A stretch of DNA of 31,961 nt from a virus. Taxonomy: Duplodnaviria > Caudoviricetes. Position 1 is the stretch's first letter; every line of letters starts with the position of its first letter. The DNA is taken from positions 1 to 31,961 of IMG/VR virus record IMGVR_UViG_3300006105_000075. The stretch is one strand, 5' to 3'. The translations under genes were made by a program, and so were the position numbers. A model generated the notes under the pieces. It was not told where the DNA came from, ran no database searches, and saw only the letters and a list, made by a program, of their open reading frames with translations. Below, piece after piece: positions 724-31,450 of the stretch.

Positions 724-731
724 TATATTTG
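724..731 (+). promoter_or_regulatory. Bacteroidota sigma-A -7 promoter element (TATATTTG)
   Basis: Exact TAnnTTTG in an intergenic region, directly upstream of a structured leader. Confidence 0.7.
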
Positions 732-738
732 CAATAAA

Positions 739-826
739 TACGGATGCGACCCGTACATTAACTTATTGCCCCTTTTATTTTGATAGATGTCGCATATCTG
801 TTATTATATTAGGGGCTATTTTAATT
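739..826 (+). ncRNA. Structured 5' leader with loop-loop (kissing) pseudoknot, copy 1
   Basis: P1 TACGG(739-743)/CCGTA(751-755), loop ATGCGAC. P2 GCCCCT(768-773)/AGGGGC(811-816) plus TGATAGAT(781-788)/ATCTGTTA(796-803), loop GTCGCAT. The two 7-nt loops are exact reverse complements. A T-rich tail follows. Confidence 0.7.
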
Positions 827-833
827 TTAAAAA

Positions 834-3030: not shown

Positions 3031-3038
3031 TATATTTG
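3031..3038 (+). promoter_or_regulatory. Bacteroidota -7 promoter element (TATATTTG)
   Basis: Exact TAnnTTTG, identical to 724-731, directly upstream of the second structured leader. Confidence 0.7.
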
Positions 3039-3041
3039 TAG

Positions 3042-3148
3042 CGTAGTGTAGCACCTACGATTAGAAACTAATTAATGGCTTTAAAAGGGATGGTGTACCT
3101 GTTTTACAGGGTGCTATTACATCATCCACTTTAAAGCTTTTTTATTTT
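3042..3148 (+). ncRNA. Structured 5' leader with loop-loop pseudoknot, copy 2
   Basis: P1 CGTAG(3042-3046)/CTACG(3055-3059), loop TGTAGCAC. P2 GGCTTTAAA(3077-3085)/TTTAAAGCT(3130-3138) and GGATGGTGTA(3088-3097)/TACATCATCC(3118-3127), capped by hairpin CCTGT/ACAGG. Unpaired GTGCTAT(3111-3117) pairs with GTAGCAC(3048-3054). A T tract precedes the ATG. Confidence 0.7.
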
Positions 3149-4600
3149 ATGTCATCATACGAACTTTACCCGTATCAAAAGAAGTTTAAAGAAAATATAC
3201 GGTCATCACTTGCCAAAAGTAAAAAGGTAATTGCTTGTGCTGCCACAGGAAGCGGTAAGACTAAAACTTTTCTTTCGATGGTTAAAGATGCTTTAGAAAA
3301 GAAAACTACTGTTTTAATAGTATCCGAAACATCAAAGATTTATAAACAAATACACGAAGAGCAAAGCGATTGCATAACCATTGGAGACGGTGTAAAGTTT
3401 GTAGATATTGAAGTAGGTAAATGCTACGTTGCAATGGCTCAAACATTGGTACGCAGACCATTTATAATATCACAGTTTCAAAACTTTGGTTCAAAACTTT
3501 TAATCATAAATGACGAGTGTCATGTGGGAACGTCTACGAAATTATTGCAACAATTAACAGATGCCTATCTTATTGGGTTTACAGCAACACCAGACTACAG
3601 AGTAGCAAAACATCTACCGCTTTTATACAATGATATTGTAATCGGAGCACAACCACAGGAACTATTAGAAGGTGGATATTTGTCACCTTATTACCACTAC
3701 GAAAGACAGGCGGCGGATTTAAGCGGATTAAAAAAAGATAGTAAAGGTGAATTTTCGGAGGCATCTCAATTTGATGCGTTTAATAAGCCAAAAGTATTTG
3801 CAGGACTTCACGAAGATTTAGAAAAGTACCACAATAAAAAAACAATAGTTTATTGTGCCTCAATAGCGGATTGTGCTGCCTTATCTCAAGAACTTAGAAA
3901 CGTTGGTTTTGTAGTGTCGGAAGTACATAGTAAAAATGAACAATCAGATATTGAACTTAACCAATTTACACACGGTCACGTTGATATTTGTGTTTCTGTT
4001 TCTGTATTAACAAAAGGTTGGGACTTTAAACCAATAGACTTAGTAATACTTAGACGTGCCACTACATCACTAGCTTTGTATTGTCAAATGGTTGGGCGTG
4101 GTGCAAGGGTTATGGATGGTAAAGAACGCTTTACCGTACTAGATTATGGCGGTAACGCATCCCGTCACGGACTATGGAACTTTGAATTTGATTGGGCTAA
4201 AATGTGGAATAAACCGCCTAAGAAAAAGAAAGACGGCGTAGCACCTATAAAAGAATGCCCTAAATGTTTTTTGATACTTGCACCTCGTGTTATGACTTGC
4301 CCAGAGTGCGGACATACATTTGAAACAAAAGAAAAAGAATACGTTGAAGGTAAGCTAGTAGAGGTCACGGAAAGTTATAATAAACTAAGGGGTAAATATA
4401 TTGCAGACCTTACTCCGATTGAATTAGCCGACTATGCTAAGATAACAAATAAGAAACCTTTTGCGATAAGAGTAGCGAAAGCAAAGCAAGATGTCCTATT
4501 TTTACAATCTTTTGCTACTGCAATGGGCTACCATTCGGGATGGGTTAAGCATCAAGACATAAGTGAACCATTAGAATTTTACAACATTAAAATTAAATAA
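3149..4600 (+). CDS. SF2 (DExH) helicase with C-terminal zinc finger (RadD/YejH-like)
   Basis: ATGSGKT, NDECH, GFTATP, LTKGWD, QMVGRGAR, and CPKC-x10-CPEC. Confidence 0.9.
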   Translation: MSSYELYPYQKKFKENIRSSLAKSKKVIACAATGSGKTKTFLSMVKDALEKKTTVLIVSETSKIYKQIHEEQSDCITIGDGVKFVDIEVGKCYVAMAQTLVRRPFIISQFQNFGSKLLIINDECHVGTSTKLLQQLTDAYLIGFTATPDYRVAKHLPLLYNDIVIGAQPQELLEGGYLSPYYHYERQAADLSGLKKDSKGEFSEASQFDAFNKPKVFAGLHEDLEKYHNKKTIVYCASIADCAALSQELRNVGFVVSEVHSKNEQSDIELNQFTHGHVDICVSVSVLTKGWDFKPIDLVILRRATTSLALYCQMVGRGARVMDGKERFTVLDYGGNASRHGLWNFEFDWAKMWNKPPKKKKDGVAPIKECPKCFLILAPRVMTCPECGHTFETKEKEYVEGKLVEVTESYNKLRGKYIADLTPIELADYAKITNKKPFAIRVAKAKQDVLFLQSFATAMGYHSGWVKHQDISEPLEFYNIKIK

Positions 4601-7063
4601 ATGAATACTACCTTTCAACAGTCAATAAAAGAATGTGAATACTACTTAGATAACGGAATTTCAATTATACCCGTAAGAGATAAACCACAAACATTTAATG
4701 GTAAAGAATATCCTGTAAAGTCTGCTTACCCTTGGAAAAAATGGCAAACAGAAATAATATCTAAAGCAGAGTTATTATATCTAATGACTGAAAAATACGA
4801 TACTATCGGTTATGGTATTGTAGCAGGTGCAGTAAGTGGAAACTTAGAAATAATTGATGTAGATGTAAAAAATTGGGTTGGCATTGATGCTATGTTATTT
4901 GCAGACATTAAAGCAATGTTTCCGCACATATTCGAGCAACTAAGAATAACACAAACACCATCAAAAGGCTACCATATATTTTACCGTATAAGCGACCACG
5001 AACCCGCAGGAAATTTAAAGTTAGCTTGGAAAGAAGATGCAAAAGAGTCAGCGATAGAGACTAGAGGCACAGGTGGATATGTAGTTGCTGCAACACAAAT
5101 GAATTACAAGGTAGTTAAAGACAATCCAATACCAACTATTACTTGGGCTGAAAGGTGCAGTATTATTGCTATTTGTGAAGGGTACAATCAAAAGAAAAAA
5201 GTAGCAGCAATAGCCCCTACAACTATATCGAATGACTATTACGACCAAAATCCATTCGACCACTTCAACGGTAGTGCAGCAGCAGAAAGCGTACTTACTA
5301 ATAATGGTTGGAGTTTATGCGGCAGTAGTAATAATTTTATTTGGTTTACCCGTCCTAATAAAACGACGGGAATTTCTGCATCATTTAACAGACATAAACG
5401 ATGTTACTACATATTCACATCATCCACAGACCTAGAACCATCAAAAGGTTATAATCCTGTAACGCTATTATCTATACTAGAACACAAGGGGGATAAAAAG
5501 AAAACTTATGCTTGGCTATGTGATAACGGATATGGTATCATAAAAGAAAAAAAGCAAAAGATATTAGCCCAAAATGCAGCCCGAAAAGGTTACACCCTTC
5601 CAAAAAATGTAAGTGAAGAAACAAAACAACTAGCAGTAACGATACAAGGTGAACTGCAAGAACTACACCCACACGGTACTTTTTGGGATTATGACGAAGA
5701 TGGTAAAATGACTATTAACCGTGAAAAACTTTTATTAGTTGCCACTTATTTAGGTTTCCGGTATTATAAGGGTAATGTAGTAAGGATATTGTCTTACCTA
5801 ATTCATAAGATTGAAGAAAGGGAGTTTCAAGATGTACTAAAAGAATACATAAAAGAACCCGATAATGAAGAATGTATATCTATTTGTAATGCTTTGGAAT
5901 CATTTTTAGAAGCACATGGTAAATATACAATGAAGCGTCTTTCAATATTGGCAGAGGATACAATATTGAAAGATACCGAAAAAACTTGTTTTAAGTTCTT
6001 TTTAAACGGTTATTTAGTAATAGATGCTACATCAATTAGCTTCCTTGAATACGATGCCTTAGAGATGCTTATTTGGGCTGAAAAGCTACAACAGCGAAAT
6101 TATAATAAAGGCGAAGGCGGAAAGTATGTAGACTTTTTGAAATTAGCAATAGGCGAAGAACACATTACACACACGCAAAAAATACTTGGTTTTCTTTGTC
6201 ACGAATATAAGGACGAAACAACGGGCTATATTATTGTGCTAACAGAACAATGTCGTGACCCTAGAGATGGCGGTGGTAGTGGTAAGAATGTATTTTGTAG
6301 CTTACTAAAACACACCACTTCTTACACTTCAAAGCCGGGCGCACAGACTAAATTTGATGAGAAGTTTTTTCAATCTTGGAACGGGCAACGTATATTTTGC
6401 ATTAGCGATGTGCCTAAAAATTTCGACTTTTCTTTTTTGAAAGAACCATCCACAGGCTCATTTATTTGGAAGAAACTATTTAAGGATGAGGTGGAAGTTA
6501 GCAACGATGAAGCCCCTAAGTTTATGGTGCAGACTAATTACAGTTATGAAGTAATTGACGGCGGTTTAAAACGTAGGATAATACCTATTGAATTTACTAA
6601 TTTCTTTACAAACGTTGGCGGCTTAGACGTTCATTATGGCTGCCATTTTCCGAAAGGATGGACTAATGAAGATTGGGCAGGTTTCGACAATTTTATAGCA
6701 CAATCAGTACAAGTATGGCTTAAAGGTGGAAAGAAATTAACTGCACCTACATTAACTGAAGGTGGATGGCTTAAACAGTTTGAACAAACATACGGATCTA
6801 TAATATTCAATTTTATTGAGCAGAATTTCAATCATTGGTGCGAACGTGTAGAAATTAGTAACGATACCTTTAAAAGTTATTTAGAAGCCTACTACGCCGA
6901 AAATAACACTCCTAAGCAATACCAGCCTTCAACCCAACGAATTAATGCCGCTATTAAGGCTTATTCTGAAAAAAAGAAAGTTGATTATAAGCACGATATT
7001 ATTAAGACTATTAATAAAGTATCTGTTAAAATGCGGATATTTTCAGTAGAAATACCTTTTTAA
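4601..7063 (+). CDS. Primase-polymerase (Prim-Pol) fused to a P-loop helicase
   Basis: N-terminal Prim-Pol motifs IIDVD, TPSKGYHIFY and ETRGTGGYVV. C-terminal GGSGKN Walker A, CISD Walker B and GGLKRRI arginine finger. Confidence 0.88.
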   Translation: MNTTFQQSIKECEYYLDNGISIIPVRDKPQTFNGKEYPVKSAYPWKKWQTEIISKAELLYLMTEKYDTIGYGIVAGAVSGNLEIIDVDVKNWVGIDAMLFADIKAMFPHIFEQLRITQTPSKGYHIFYRISDHEPAGNLKLAWKEDAKESAIETRGTGGYVVAATQMNYKVVKDNPIPTITWAERCSIIAICEGYNQKKKVAAIAPTTISNDYYDQNPFDHFNGSAAAESVLTNNGWSLCGSSNNFIWFTRPNKTTGISASFNRHKRCYYIFTSSTDLEPSKGYNPVTLLSILEHKGDKKKTYAWLCDNGYGIIKEKKQKILAQNAARKGYTLPKNVSEETKQLAVTIQGELQELHPHGTFWDYDEDGKMTINREKLLLVATYLGFRYYKGNVVRILSYLIHKIEEREFQDVLKEYIKEPDNEECISICNALESFLEAHGKYTMKRLSILAEDTILKDTEKTCFKFFLNGYLVIDATSISFLEYDALEMLIWAEKLQQRNYNKGEGGKYVDFLKLAIGEEHITHTQKILGFLCHEYKDETTGYIIVLTEQCRDPRDGGGSGKNVFCSLLKHTTSYTSKPGAQTKFDEKFFQSWNGQRIFCISDVPKNFDFSFLKEPSTGSFIWKKLFKDEVEVSNDEAPKFMVQTNYSYEVIDGGLKRRIIPIEFTNFFTNVGGLDVHYGCHFPKGWTNEDWAGFDNFIAQSVQVWLKGGKKLTAPTLTEGGWLKQFEQTYGSIIFNFIEQNFNHWCERVEISNDTFKSYLEAYYAENNTPKQYQPSTQRINAAIKAYSEKKKVDYKHDIIKTINKVSVKMRIFSVEIPF

Positions 7064-7371
7064 ATTACTAAAATTACTAAATGATTACTAAATTTTTTTA
7101 AGGTTTAGTAATTCTAAAACCTTTACTACTATTGACTTTTAAAGATAAATTACTAAAATTACTAAAAATAATTCTATTTATTGTATAAGAAAAATATAAA
7201 GAATATAAAGGATGTTAAAATAAAACATAAATAATCAATAGTATTGTTACTTTATATAAATAATAGATAGGTAAATTTTTAGTAATTTGGTAATTTTTAT
7301 ATTGAAACCTTTACTACCATTGAATTACAGCGATTACTAAACTTTTACAAAAATTACTAAATATGACTAAA
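7064..7371. repeat. Iteron array; probable phage replication origin
   Basis: ATTACTAAA at 7064, 7073, 7084, 7149, 7158, 7333 and 7353. Inverted TTTAGTAAT at 7104 and 7278, plus TTTGGTAAT at 7286. 19-bp repeat AAACCTTTACTAC(T/C)ATTGA at 7117 and 7305. AT-rich core; located just after the primase-helicase gene. Confidence 0.8.
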
Positions 7372-11840: not shown

Positions 11841-12890
11841 ATGGCTAAAGAAATTCCTATAAAAGGAAGTTTTGAGGCTATGAAAGACACTAGCGTATTT
11901 GAGCGATATATGCAAAACGCTTATCAGTTTAGTGCAAGCCGAAACGCCGAAATAGCTAAAGAAATGCAATCGGCGGTATTTGATAGCAAAGGAACTATAA
12001 AAACATTCAGCCAATACAAAAAAGATGCTGCACAAATAGCCGAAATAAACAACGAAGTACATTTAAGGGTAGAGTATGAAACTTGCCGTAAAGGTGCGGT
12101 AATGGGTGAGCGTTTTAGGCAAATTGAAAGTTTGAAAGATTATTACCCATATTGGGTGTACAAGGGTGAAATGGATGGTAGGGAACGTGAGGAACATATA
12201 GAGCTAGAGGGTAAAGTTTACAAGGTTGGTGACCCTGCTGGCGATGCTATATTTCCGCCGAATGGGTTTAATTGCCGTTGTGATGGCGTTAGTATTGACA
12301 ATGATGAGATAGAGGGTAAAGGCTATAACATTTCTACAAGCAAAGAAGCCGAAGAAGATTTGAAAAATGAAGTAGACCCACAATTTCGCTTCAATCCTGC
12401 ACATCAAGGTATGTTGCCAAAAGAAGGTATAACCAATGGTAATACTTTCAATGCTGATATTTTCGGACTAAACAAACCAAATGCGGATAGTGACCCCGAA
12501 GGTTTTAGCAGTCGTTTATTAGCTGCAACAGGACTGCATCAGGTTATGGCAATAGTAGACGATTGGAAAGACAAATACACAACAGACAAGAAAGGCAATG
12601 TAATATTTCAAAACAACGATACCTATACAAATGTCATCCTTAGCAATATATCTATCCACAATATACAAAAGCATCCAAGAGGATTTGAAGGGCTGCCAAG
12701 TACGATAGAAAAACCTGACGAGATTTGGGGAACGTGGGAAAATGAAAAACAAACGGTAGTATTAAAGAATTATATTACCTTTGGCAAGAAAATAAGCTAC
12801 ATTGTGCAAACTAAAGACGGGGTTATAACAGATGCGTTTGCGGTTAGTAATGGTAGTTTGAGTAAGTTTAGAAAAGGAGTAATTTATTAA
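11841..12890 (+). CDS. MuF (Mu gpF/SPP1 gp7-like) minor head protein with a C-terminal PBECR-like nuclease domain; coding frame probably extends upstream to ~11670
   Basis: MuF motif YWVY....DGR.R.EH..LEG......D.....FPPNGFNCRC. The C-terminus L.STIEKPDEIW...KFRKGVIY resembles PBECR2-type domains. Confidence 0.8.
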   Translation: MAKEIPIKGSFEAMKDTSVFERYMQNAYQFSASRNAEIAKEMQSAVFDSKGTIKTFSQYKKDAAQIAEINNEVHLRVEYETCRKGAVMGERFRQIESLKDYYPYWVYKGEMDGREREEHIELEGKVYKVGDPAGDAIFPPNGFNCRCDGVSIDNDEIEGKGYNISTSKEAEEDLKNEVDPQFRFNPAHQGMLPKEGITNGNTFNADIFGLNKPNADSDPEGFSSRLLAATGLHQVMAIVDDWKDKYTTDKKGNVIFQNNDTYTNVILSNISIHNIQKHPRGFEGLPSTIEKPDEIWGTWENEKQTVVLKNYITFGKKISYIVQTKDGVITDAFAVSNGSLSKFRKGVIY

Positions 12891-13508: not shown

Positions 13509-13876
13509 AAAAAAAAATTATCGCAATCGCTGCCTTTATAGCAATGGCATCATGCACAAAGACAACAGTAAGTAATCCGACAAACACCGACAACAAGAAT
13601 TATACTGTACATCTAAAGCCGTCTATTTTATTTGACGGTCACCAACTACGGGCAAACTTAATAGCCGACATTATTCCTAACAATACAATTATAGGGGCTA
13701 ATGTATCCTATGATTGGGATAGTGCAGGATTTTTTAACAACCGTTATACCTTCGATAACTTGCAAGTAATGGTAGAGCAAAACATAGGCTACACAAACAG
13801 AAGCCAATGGACTATTGCCAATATAAAAATAGATACGGCGTGGAGTGATAATGTGAATGTAAAATTAATCTACTAA
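13505..13876 (+). CDS. Lipoprotein of unknown function
   Basis: MKKK, a hydrophobic stretch, then a lipobox-like MASC (Cys17). Confidence 0.75.
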   Translation: MKKKIIAIAAFIAMASCTKTTVSNPTNTDNKNYTVHLKPSILFDGHQLRANLIADIIPNNTIIGANVSYDWDSAGFFNNRYTFDNLQVMVEQNIGYTNRSQWTIANIKIDTAWSDNVNVKLIY

Positions 13877-24328: not shown

Positions 24329-25441
24329 ATGTATTTTAACGCACATCTTACGGTAACAATTAACGGCAATACTATAAAGACTATTTGCAGCGTTAGTAAA
24401 AAGCATGACGGCCACTCTTTAGGTAGTGAGTGCGATATTACGTTGCCTATGAATTGCGTGATACAGTACAAAGATGGAACGCATGATAAACTAACACAAT
24501 ACACGGTAAATACTCAAGCAGCATTCGGCGTTGGTTCTACTGTATTAGTAACGGCTAATTATGACACTTACAACGAACAAACTATATTTGAAGGCTTTAT
24601 AACTGATTTTGTTTTCGGTAATCCTATAAAGATTAAATGTATGGATTATCAATACTTTTTTAATTTAGGAATATTCGGGCAAGAACGGGGGGCAAGTGTA
24701 AAGATTAATAAAAAAAAGAAGTCACCAGTAATAAATACTTACGGCTGCCATTATGCTAGTATCACATTGAAAGACCTATTAACAAATATTATAGGCTTCG
24801 TAAATGATACAATAGACATAAAGTCAACAGATGCCGAACACGTTACTTTAGTGCTACCAATACCTGACATTGAATTAGTAAACATTACTTTTTCAATGAT
24901 GACACCTGCCTCTATATGTCAATACTTTATTAAAGAGTTAGGTTTGGTATTAACATTGAATGGCACTAACTTATATTGTAATGTTGCATCAAATACAACG
25001 GATGTTATTAACTATGCAACAAATAGAAACGTGATAGTGTCCGACCTTCAAAAACCTACTTCTACATTCCAAACATATAAGGTTAAGGCGTGGTTTTATC
25101 AGCCAACAGGAAAGAAAGATAGTATTGAAGTAGGTGATACAAACGGGCAACAAAGGGACGTTTATTTTTACAGAGTGAAACAAGATGCAGCCCTTTACCT
25201 AAAAATGGCAACAGAAGCACTAAACAAAGTGCGCCAAATGCGTTTTAACGGTTCAATTACTACTTATCTTTACCCCGAACCGATACTATTTGCAAAGGCT
25301 GTTTATACTGATATTCGTTATCCTGCAAGAAGTGGCAATTATGTTATAACAGCTATTGAAACAACAATAGACCAAAGTGGTTATAGGCATAAATTAAAAC
25401 TAGCATATTTGACTGACTTAAATGATACAACTAATTTATAA
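24329..25441 (+). CDS. Baseplate hub protein (P2 gpD / Mu gp44-like)
   Basis: 370 aa; C.ITLP, FEGFI, IKCMD, G.ITT...P and G.YVI..I motifs, plus synteny. Confidence 0.75.
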   Translation: MYFNAHLTVTINGNTIKTICSVSKKHDGHSLGSECDITLPMNCVIQYKDGTHDKLTQYTVNTQAAFGVGSTVLVTANYDTYNEQTIFEGFITDFVFGNPIKIKCMDYQYFFNLGIFGQERGASVKINKKKKSPVINTYGCHYASITLKDLLTNIIGFVNDTIDIKSTDAEHVTLVLPIPDIELVNITFSMMTPASICQYFIKELGLVLTLNGTNLYCNVASNTTDVINYATNRNVIVSDLQKPTSTFQTYKVKAWFYQPTGKKDSIEVGDTNGQQRDVYFYRVKQDAALYLKMATEALNKVRQMRFNGSITTYLYPEPILFAKAVYTDIRYPARSGNYVITAIETTIDQSGYRHKLKLAYLTDLNDTTNL

Positions 25442-29356: not shown

Positions 29357-31450
29357 ATGAAGTTTTTATTAACATTACTTTTATGCGCTTCAATTGCTTA
29401 CGGGCAAACGATAATAACTCAACCTTATGCGTTTCAAAAATACATAACCGTTAAGGATAGTAGCAATTTACAAGGTCGTTTAACCATCCCAACTGATACC
29501 ACAACAAACAAGAATGGTATTGCACAAATTGGCACATCTATATACACGGGCAACGGTACTTATTGGACTTTAGCGAGTGGGGGTAGTTCAAGTTCTTTCA
29601 ACAACGGCGGTAATTCATTTGGTTCAACTGCTATAATAGGGACGAAAGACAATAACGACTTGAAAATAATCAATAACAATACTAATTATTGGACTTTCGG
29701 CAAAACAGGCACATTAAGTAACAGTGGCGTTTCTTTTGATTTTGCAGGTGACGTAACCGCATCGAGTAGCGCAGCCATAACAGGAGGTGCGATATATCCT
29801 ATTAATTACTTATCATTGCCCGACACCAACAGAAACGTTGCTTATAATTTGATAGGCACTCATAATGGTAGTTTATTTGCTCAAATAGGTTCGGGGCAAT
29901 ATTTTAGGCAAGTCTTAATGGCAAAAGATAGTAGTTTATACGTTACCCCTACTCAATTAACGGCAGCATCTTACACCCTGCCACAAGCTACTAGCAGCGT
30001 ATTAGGTGGCGTTAAGATAGGAAGTAATATAAACGTAAGCAGTGGAACGATTAGCCTTAATAACAGCAATGTGATAGCAGCATTGGGGTATATGCCTATA
30101 CAGTTGTCTTCATTAAGTGCCACTCGAAATGTAAGTTCGGGTAGTATATTTTCGTATAATAATCTTACTGGGGCTTACAATTTCGATACAACTAAACTAT
30201 TAACGCTTACTTCTATAAGTGCTACAACTCCAATGACATTTAACACTTCGACAGGAGTTATTGCGATAGGGCAATCATCTACTAGCACTAACGGGTATTT
30301 AAGCAGTACTGATTGGAATACGTTTAATGGAAAAATTAATTTATCCTCTCTATCTGCAACTCGCAACGTTTCAACAGGGTCGATATTCACTTACAACAGT
30401 TCAACGGGGGCTTATAATTTGGATACGACTAAATATCAAGCACCAATAAGCGCAGGAACGGATATAACGATAGCTAGTAATGTAGTTTCAGCCGACACCA
30501 CAACAGGCGCAACTAAGTTAGCTACGCAAGGGTATGTTACGAGGAATAGTGGGAGTGGGGGATTGACGGGCGGATTTACGGTATCCTCAACAGCAGCCCC
30601 TATATTATTTGGGAGTGTTACCAATAGTAAAATTAGCGGTTCACAAAGTAGGATAACAATTGATACATCAAAATCAGTAGCTACCATAATATTAGACACT
30701 GCTGGCGGTTCATTAGTTACTACTACAACCCCGCCCTCAATAGATTTTGGTAATTCTACAACTACATTAGGAAATTTAGGTAAATACCCAAAATTAATTT
30801 TGGAGCATAACTCAGGTGCTCTTTCGGGTATTTGTACAGGTAGCGGCAGTTTGGGATATACCGCACAAAATTCCCACTATTGGTACACAGGGGGGTATAA
30901 TTCACCTACACAAACAATGTCATTAGACAATAGTGGTAATTTACAAGCTTTTTCTTTCACCGCTACCCCTTCATACTTATCTAAAGGATTTGAAATTTAC
31001 GAAAGTGGGCTTATCATTCAATTGTATAGAAGCGGCTCTTTTAATGGAATAAATTCTGGCATTTACGGTGTAAGTTTTGCCAATAGTGGAACGGTAGCAG
31101 GGCAGATGTTTAGTACAGGTAGATGGTATTTCGGTGCTAGCCCTAGTGACGATGGGGTGAATATCGCTCAGTTCAATGGTTCTATAAAACTAGAAACAGC
31201 AGGTAATAAAATCAACATAGCCACAGGTACAAACGCCTCTATCGGTACAGCCACACTTTCATCGGGAACGGTAACGGTAAGCACTACGGCGGTAACTTCA
31301 TCTAGTAAAATATTCGTTACCCACGCAGGAAGTAGCATAAGTAATGCAGGCACACTATATATAGGAACAATTTCAGCAAATACATCATTTATTATTAACT
31401 CCACTAATTCTAGCGATAACGACAGCATAAATTGGTGGATTGTGAACTAA
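29357..31450 (+). CDS. Long tail fibre-like protein carrying an N-terminal Sec signal peptide
   Basis: MKFLLTLLLCASIAYG|QT. S/T/G-rich body with fibre motifs YTLP.AT.SVLGGVKIG, NGYLSSTDWNTFN.K and LATQGYV. Located at the end of the tail module. Confidence 0.75.
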   Translation: MKFLLTLLLCASIAYGQTIITQPYAFQKYITVKDSSNLQGRLTIPTDTTTNKNGIAQIGTSIYTGNGTYWTLASGGSSSSFNNGGNSFGSTAIIGTKDNNDLKIINNNTNYWTFGKTGTLSNSGVSFDFAGDVTASSSAAITGGAIYPINYLSLPDTNRNVAYNLIGTHNGSLFAQIGSGQYFRQVLMAKDSSLYVTPTQLTAASYTLPQATSSVLGGVKIGSNINVSSGTISLNNSNVIAALGYMPIQLSSLSATRNVSSGSIFSYNNLTGAYNFDTTKLLTLTSISATTPMTFNTSTGVIAIGQSSTSTNGYLSSTDWNTFNGKINLSSLSATRNVSTGSIFTYNSSTGAYNLDTTKYQAPISAGTDITIASNVVSADTTTGATKLATQGYVTRNSGSGGLTGGFTVSSTAAPILFGSVTNSKISGSQSRITIDTSKSVATIILDTAGGSLVTTTTPPSIDFGNSTTTLGNLGKYPKLILEHNSGALSGICTGSGSLGYTAQNSHYWYTGGYNSPTQTMSLDNSGNLQAFSFTATPSYLSKGFEIYESGLIIQLYRSGSFNGINSGIYGVSFANSGTVAGQMFSTGRWYFGASPSDDGVNIAQFNGSIKLETAGNKINIATGTNASIGTATLSSGTVTVSTTAVTSSSKIFVTHAGSSISNAGTLYIGTISANTSFIINSTNSSDNDSINWWIVN
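30104..30433 (+). repeat. Internal 31-codon duplication in the fibre gene
   Basis: LSSLSATRNVSSGSIFSYNNLTGAYNFDTTK (30104-30196) vs LSSLSATRNVSTGSIFTYNSSTGAYNLDTTK (30341-30433). Confidence 0.9.

Follow-up and report, generated by a model that had tools for sequence, protein, structure and literature searches.

Why should two small hairpins with perfectly matching loops stand between a promoter and the start codon of a phage helicase-methyltransferase gene? The question is raised by positions 724-836 of the IMG/VR record IMGVR_UViG_3300006105_000075 (Caudoviricetes), analysed here over the whole virus record of 31,961 bases, hereafter the window. A first-pass annotation, made from the letters of the DNA, had listed a promoter, a 5-bp hairpin, a linker, a long hairpin, a T-rich tail and a start codon, and all of these are present in the sequence (Table 1). 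The two 7-nt loops are indeed exact reverse complements, and the downstream gene encodes, as it had said, a helicase fused to a methyltransferase. It had also suggested that the loops pair with each other in a cis-regulatory switch or attenuator, for which SAM or SAH deserved a trial as ligand.

The window includes genes for terminase, a Mu-type portal, tape measure and Prim-Pol. Its host is probably a Bacteroidota species, since the promoter boxes are of the TAnnTTTG type and the best cultured hits of the protein encoded at 834-2987 are Flavobacterium phages, at 46% identity. The window also holds a Mu gpF-like protein fused to a PBECR2 nuclease-like domain (11841-12890), a tail protein with a K1-lyase C-terminal domain (29357-31450), an AT-rich gap after Prim-Pol (7063-7363) whose repeated TTACTAAA-like words on both strands could mark a replication origin, and a short hairpin with a T run behind an upstream, cut-off gene (179-210), which gave a chance-level Rfam match to Histone3.

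Table 1. Coordinates of the two leader copies and of the genes that they head.
Feature	Position	Strand	Basis or remark
Promoter box TATATTTG, TAnnTTTG type (Bacteroidota sigma-A -7 box)	724..731	+	Sequence; predicted promoter, kept in orthologues
Predicted RNA start	~736	+	From box position
Hairpin 1, 5 bp, TACGG/CCGTA, at predicted RNA 5' end	739..755	+	Fold; compensated stem in L447
Loop 1 ATGCGAC, kissing partner	744..750	+	Reverse complement of 789-795; swapped with loop 2 in L447
A/U linker, 12 nt	756..767	+	Shortest among 48 members; without the usual family AAAACAUU
Hairpin 2, terminator-like, GC-rich base	768..816	+	-20.8 kcal/mol, loop held open
Loop 2 GTCGCAT, kissing partner	789..795	+	Sequence and pairing energy
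U-rich tail TATTTTAA and translation start region	817..833	+	5 T in first 8 nt, interrupted; 17 nt to ATG
Start codon ATG	834	+	Sequence
SNF2-like helicase fused to N6/N4 DNA methyltransferase, 717 aa	834..2987	+	Pfam PF00176, PF00271, PF01555
Copy 2 leader overall	3031..3151	+	Different code from copy 1; loop pattern, model R2
Copy 2 promoter box	3031-3038	+	
Copy 2 hairpin 1	3042-3059	+	Loop TAGCACC 3049-3055
Copy 2 hairpin 2	3078-3137	+	Partner GGTGCTA 3110-3116; small hairpin inserted
Copy 2 U tract and ATG	from 3138; 3149	+	
ResIII/DEAD helicase and Prim-Pol genes headed by copy 2	3149..7063	+	

In Flavobacterium the TAnnTTTG box covers -12 to -5, according to the available text of PMC9723704, so that the RNA of the first copy is expected to begin near 736. 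The RNA 736-824 folds with z = -5.66, none of 200 shuffles being equally good, and the opposite strand of the same interval gives z = -2.87. Watson-Crick pairing between the two loops ends at the loop edges (7 bp). The earlier description of both loops as fully exposed was slightly too strong, in that the fold model closes loop 2 to a triloop. The 2.2 kcal/mol needed to open it compare with about -9 kcal/mol for the 7-bp kiss helix. A search of copy 1 for a mutually exclusive antiterminator helix returned, apart from the kiss, nothing beyond a weak pairing of 740-746 with 795-801 (-5.1 kcal/mol). The order of parts is that of an intrinsic terminator: a hairpin with a GC-rich base stands between the promoter and the first codon, and a U tract comes after it. 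The tail of copy 1 is interrupted, and a simple terminator scan of the window did not have this copy among its calls. The heptamer occurs three times in the window against 2.0 expected and TANNTTTG 43 times against 51 expected, while a full promoter-kiss-terminator match turned up once in 5 of 25 shuffled windows and twice in none. Neither the heptamer nor the box, nor even one full match, exceeds what chance may give in a single window, and the case rests on the relatives.

Direct orthologues of copy 1 show what is kept. In L447, whose protein is 72% identical, the leader flanks agree with the window almost letter for letter, and the loops are exchanged: loop 1 reads GTCGCAT and loop 2 ATGCGAC, so 5 of the 7 kiss pairs are altered on both sides, both apical stems are rebuilt and the stem of hairpin 1 is compensated. 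Such a swap may have arisen by template-switch flipping of the loops. L461 and L533 retain the code, and their apical stem of hairpin 2 has been replaced yet is still paired. The sister phage L542, whose next helicase is 96% identical, keeps the promoter and the tail around a different body; this positional orthologue of copy 1 has a canonical body at the same spot, with the code TGGCGG/CCGCTA (one G-U pair), and is scored by the family model R2 at 27.2 bits (E 0.0085). Loop-loop covariation at homologous loci, by which the first-pass annotation had proposed to judge its kissing contact, is thus present in L447, in L542 and, as described below, across the family. As read from these alignments, shape and contact are conserved in the orthologues and the letters are free.

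Some further peculiarities of these loci may be recorded. The apex of hairpin 2 in L533 (204-310) and L461 (1091-1196) looks like hairpin 1 copied in inverted orientation, and a single event of this kind might produce a new matched code. Near-identical sister phages (L542 from 1517 onward, L534 1-1500, L535) exchange the gene in the methylase slot and copy 2 stays fixed; the genes swapped in are a different helicase-methylase that shares the first codons only, or other genes. Upstream of copy 1, at 645-695 on the plus strand, a 16-codon stub (MQNNIV...) overlaps the end of a DnaA-type HTH gene and looks like a deletion remnant, because L461 and L542 carry a 110-aa gene with the same start.

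The window contains a second copy of the leader, which model R2 finds with 41 bits (E 2e-5) and whose own orthologues (L526-L528) vary. A leader directly after the methylase gene is likewise found in L002, L006, L010, L013, L039, L048, L050 and L057. Matches at 24939 and 15268 of the window were considered as further copies and dropped as weak.

Beyond the orthologues, the leader layout precedes the viral homologues of the methylase gene in 13 of 69 unique upstream regions (12 recognised by script and 1 by eye), which amount to 9 distinct elements, and the metagenome homologues in 8 of 66, one of them identical to the window. Nine upstream regions proposed by a loose detector (L009, L026, L028, L044, L056, L066, L068, L072 and L079) were dropped, as they are without the promoter-terminator layout. 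With a loop-blind pattern, in which only the box, AAAACATT and TTTTATG were specified, complementary loops were present in 31 of 75 unique viral matches, whereas joining the 5' half of one match to the 3' half of another gave them in 206 of 5550 pairs (3.7%), and in 92 of 930 among the positives. A slightly stricter pattern yielded kissing in 14/30 viral matches against 4/108 cellular ones, none of the four convincing; a GGGGGAG-anchored pattern gave 25 unique matches with 4 true members, none of them new. A scan of viral contigs for the exact heptamer pair gave at least 120 loci, which stand outside these counts. In a structure-blind alignment of 19 members, 6 of the 7 kiss pairs are altered on both sides and covariation reaches 0.533 against 0.226 in shuffles despite register errors, a count that is partly circular in that the rows had been picked for kissing. 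Less circular is the search with a model from which the kiss was removed: it reached eight new places, six of them with a kiss of 6-8 bp (5 by script, 1 by eye), the other two being weak or partial matches with no kiss. R2 was built from the 19 members, and a model R1, which held 3 pairs only, was left unused. Model searches of cellular genomes gave 0/5, 0/151 and 0/151, a weak negative as 26 candidates were scored per large genome with no positive control.

Cultured phages carry the element too. FCV-1 and hemulen6-1 each have two copies, those of hemulen6-1 lying at 13726 and 14761, and among the Flavobacterium LMO6/LMO9 phages it occurs in 34 records. One hemulen6-1 copy shares with its HNH gene a segment that is held by another gene in lillamy9-1; the other (14761), which lillamy9-1 has too, heads primase genes, and 51 nt separate its U tract from the ATG. 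The genome G004 has four copies with four codes. Taken together, these comparisons indicate that the element is real and widespread in phages. FCV-1 also has, at L433 11954-12054, a promoter, a GAAA hairpin and a terminator before a structural gene, and no kiss was detected there.

The anatomy of the family was drawn from 48 curated members. Hairpin 1 begins 2-5 nt past the box in 32 of them, the kiss measures 6-9 bp, the loop-to-loop spacing lies at 37-47 nt in 37/48, and the plus strand folds better than the opposite one in 40. Since 26 members came from a pattern demanding TTTTATG, the counts for tail and start codon are biased: a U-rich tail (at least 5 T) follows the stem in all 48, and the ATG lies within 19 nt of the stem in 46 and at 9-13 nt in 37. 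The U tail of hemulen6-1 nevertheless remains at the stem despite the distant ATG. There are 43 loop codes among the 48 members and no invariant loop base, although 26 codes begin with GU; AGUA/GAA-type internal loops sit beneath loop 2 in 14. With so many codes, differences between copies of one genome are expected anyway, and selection for unlike codes within a genome cannot be claimed. Copy 1 obtains only 16 bits from R2 (E 1.3, at 724-831). Its layout fits the family (box-hairpin offset 7, kiss 7 bp, spacing 38, ATG at 17 nt), and its hairpin 2 can be set against a median of -13.8 kcal/mol over the 48 members. It is atypical in the shortness of its linker, in being without AAAACAUU and the AGUA/GAA loop, and in the reversed polarity of its code. 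Copy 1 is placed in the family by layout and by its replacement in L542, not by sequence.

The genes behind the leader bear on what it might sense. A scan of 34 of the 48 downstream proteins, with near-duplicates, the protein of the window and most homologues of the helicase-methylase set aside, recovered 16 nucleases, 5 HTH or initiator-like proteins, 1 antirepressor, 1 SNF2 helicase and 11 unnamed proteins. Because the leader precedes few of the methylase homologues and many nucleases, it is not methylase-specific and SAM sensing is unlikely; together with the diversity of codes, this leaves the SAM/SAH lead of the first-pass annotation without support. The unit looks portable from its genomic contexts, travelling with nuclease and methylase cassettes and also heading replication operons. 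Nearly the same leader (code GGGACG) lies before a helicase-methylase at L540 291 and before an HNH nuclease at L201 1501. Start regions of methylase genes contain 8.8 T per 16 nt behind a leader (n = 9) against 4.2 in those lacking one (n = 37; p = 8e-5), in a comparison made with no 3' selection and after regions without a called ATG were dropped; the leaderless ones are A-rich. In F. johnsoniae, as the available text of PMC6847099 reports, A-rich starts are favoured; initiation profits from A at -12/-13 and suffers from structure between -20 and +20. Given this preference, and with T-rich starts behind a leader, the U tail reads as the tail of a terminator.

The reading that we favour, with confidence evenly divided for and against it, is that the leader serves Bacteroidota phages as a ligand-free transcription attenuator, the kiss allowing some transcripts to be extended into the gene. 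An RNA of about 85 nt would start from the predicted host-type promoter, and the loop of hairpin 1 would pair with the loop of the terminator-like hairpin as loop 2 leaves the polymerase. With this kiss in place the terminator would close less readily, and a fixed share of polymerases would enter the helicase-methylase gene. The kiss would thus favour read-through without a small-molecule ligand, and translation of the extended transcript would also be damped by the base of the stem and by the U-rich start region. In this scheme we infer transcription from the box, termination at the tail, the timing of the kiss and ligand-free read-through. Its direction is modelled on guanidine-IV, where, as far as the available text of PMC7736828 and PMC11611296 goes, this contact between loops favours read-through, and the terminator stem takes up linker as it grows and opposes the kiss. 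Perfect kisses of 5-7 bp generally form unaided (PMC10907184, available text), and for this reason, together with the missing fixed loop base, no ligand is proposed. A read-through role is further favoured by the replication genes, which must be read although they lie behind a terminator. At equilibrium hairpin 2 outweighs the kiss helix, and any effect of the kiss would therefore be kinetic or partial. A fully stretched linker would reach across a straight stack in almost every member (median reach/span 1.45), copy 1 alone falling below 1 (0.84). The prediction that the linker lengthens with helix length failed: longer stacks go with shorter linkers (rho -0.57). Against an attenuator also stand the stem-to-ATG distance, which at 9-13 nt in most members is tighter than a terminator requires, and, for copy 1, the interrupted tail and the low family-model score. 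The covariation of the loop-loop contact supports a cis-acting, attenuator-like RNA, which may act as a switch or only set a level, and whose short product might have an effect by itself. It is tempting, if rather speculative, to go further and to imagine a portable, protein-free phage antiterminator read by its shape, in which either the free 7-letter kiss would clamp the terminator or host RNA polymerase or Nus factors would recognise the kiss, the module moving with selfish nuclease cassettes and gating replication operons.

The same architecture may be read otherwise. The kiss could stabilise the terminated RNA or aid folding of the terminator, the product being a compact, end-protected small RNA and read-through needing a protein that recognises shape, of which Rop is an example; we consider this unlikely, though it deserves some weight. 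Such a product would be bounded by hairpin 1 at its predicted start and by the terminator at its 3' terminus, the linker is long enough for the kiss plus the full stem in most members, the AGUA/GAA-type internal loops offer a further structured feature in some of them, and a free code on a fixed shape suits Rop-like recognition. The closeness of the start codon in nearly all members argues the other way and, besides the methylase, no protein is common to the window contig, which is possibly partial, and both cultured phages examined; as nothing beyond the methylase links the contig to either phage, a host factor is the likelier partner, if there is one. In phage and plasmid leaders of the P4 CI and P1 c4 immunity and pT181 attenuation type, termination is decided by short complementary segments; these systems act in trans via a separate RNA. 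That the leader is the target or the source of such an antisense RNA seems highly improbable. The short variable codes do differ between copies of one genome, as in G004, but such differences are expected from the code diversity alone; antisense promoter boxes follow 11/47 members against 38/178 background windows, in three genomes the codes recur as isolated matches, about as often as chance would give, no extended third copy was found, and the leader shows neither a sign of a separate trans RNA nor an Rfam c4 match. As for a chance or DNA-level origin, in which a promoter and a terminator happen to carry an inverted repeat, be it coincidental or copied by mutation, the single matches in shuffled windows and the L533 apex, from which template switching might create matched loops, speak for it; in view of the family-wide covariation, the confinement of complementarity to 6-9 bp at the loops and the plus-strand folding bias, its probability is close to negligible.

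Translational control, whereby hairpin 2 and the U-rich start region would limit ribosome loading and the kiss would tune the stem base, is in our opinion quite improbable. It draws on the peak of the stem-to-ATG distance at 9-13 nt and on the initiation preferences of F. johnsoniae cited above (PMC6847099), whereas the U tail keeps to the stem with the ATG 51 nt away, CAU in the linker stands in no register with the AUG (rho 0.13, n = 35), and the stem of copy 1 ends 17 nt upstream of its ATG. An RNA that docks on host RNA polymerase and confers resistance to downstream terminators, as put of phage HK022 does, is very doubtful for this family. Both are promoter-proximal two-stem phage RNAs of similar size, the leader heads replication operons (copy 2; hemulen6-1 14761), and put acts on the host polymerase with no need of a phage protein (PMC9378689, available text). 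According to the same text, however, put has no loop-loop helix, depends on specific bases and is not itself a terminator, while the second stem here has a terminator shape, the code is free and many copies head single nuclease genes. A small-molecule riboswitch for SAM, SAH or an unknown ligand is very improbable indeed: a topology like that of guanidine-IV, the methyltransferase gene of the window and the frequent GU at the start of the code are outweighed by the lack of any invariant loop base, the perfect kisses of 6-9 bp, the diverse downstream genes and the result with Rfam.

Returning to the attenuator reading, we asked how far the element is already known. Its dissimilarity to named riboswitches, noted at first sight, holds for Rfam: the whole window and 20 family loci returned nothing, and 1-2000 nothing but four chance-level matches. 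For a SAM/SAH riboswitch, there is thus neither an Rfam match nor a steady link to SAM-related genes. The nearest likeness is guanidine-IV (mepA / GGAM-1), in which, in the available text of PMC7736828 and PMC11611296, the first hairpin of a 5' leader pairs through its loop with that of an intrinsic terminator, linker strain is the proposed cause of read-through, the ligand-binding loop bases are more than 97% conserved and the carriers are mostly Firmicutes, before exporters. Here the pairing of a loop with the terminator is borne out by covariation, but the code is free, the kiss perfect, the carriers found are phages and the genes mostly nuclease and replication genes; a conserved pocket, an Rfam match and exporter genes were not found. 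Part of the family may already have been catalogued, without kiss or function, as DNAVirus_8377 (Fremin et al. 2023, PMC10690425), an entry of 105 nt and 88 sequences with the terminator call 'yes', mostly from freshwater and Bacteroidetes hosts, upstream of HNH_3/NUMOD4/AP2/GIY-YIG genes; going by the description only, its host, downstream genes, length and terminator call fit those of the kissing-loop family. The main text of PMC10690425 contains neither 'kissing' nor 'Bacteroid' and gives no function for DNAVirus_8377, and that of PMC5737381 contains none of 'kissing', 'Bacteroid' and 'HNH'. No description of a kissing-loop leader family was found in the literature covered, most subscription papers lying outside the search. 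The element would accordingly be a variant of the terminator-loop attenuators that is absent from Rfam, with a predicted function.

As far as we know, the timing and dosing of gene expression in Bacteroidota phages have been little studied. The family provides a concrete, testable control element that is present in cultured phages, and the loop-swap orthologue L447 is a ready-made compensatory variant of copy 1. If the kiss tunes termination without a ligand, the leader would represent a reduced natural version of the guanidine-IV mechanism, described as new by its discoverers, and, if this holds true, the family would be a source of orthogonal regulatory parts for Bacteroidota.
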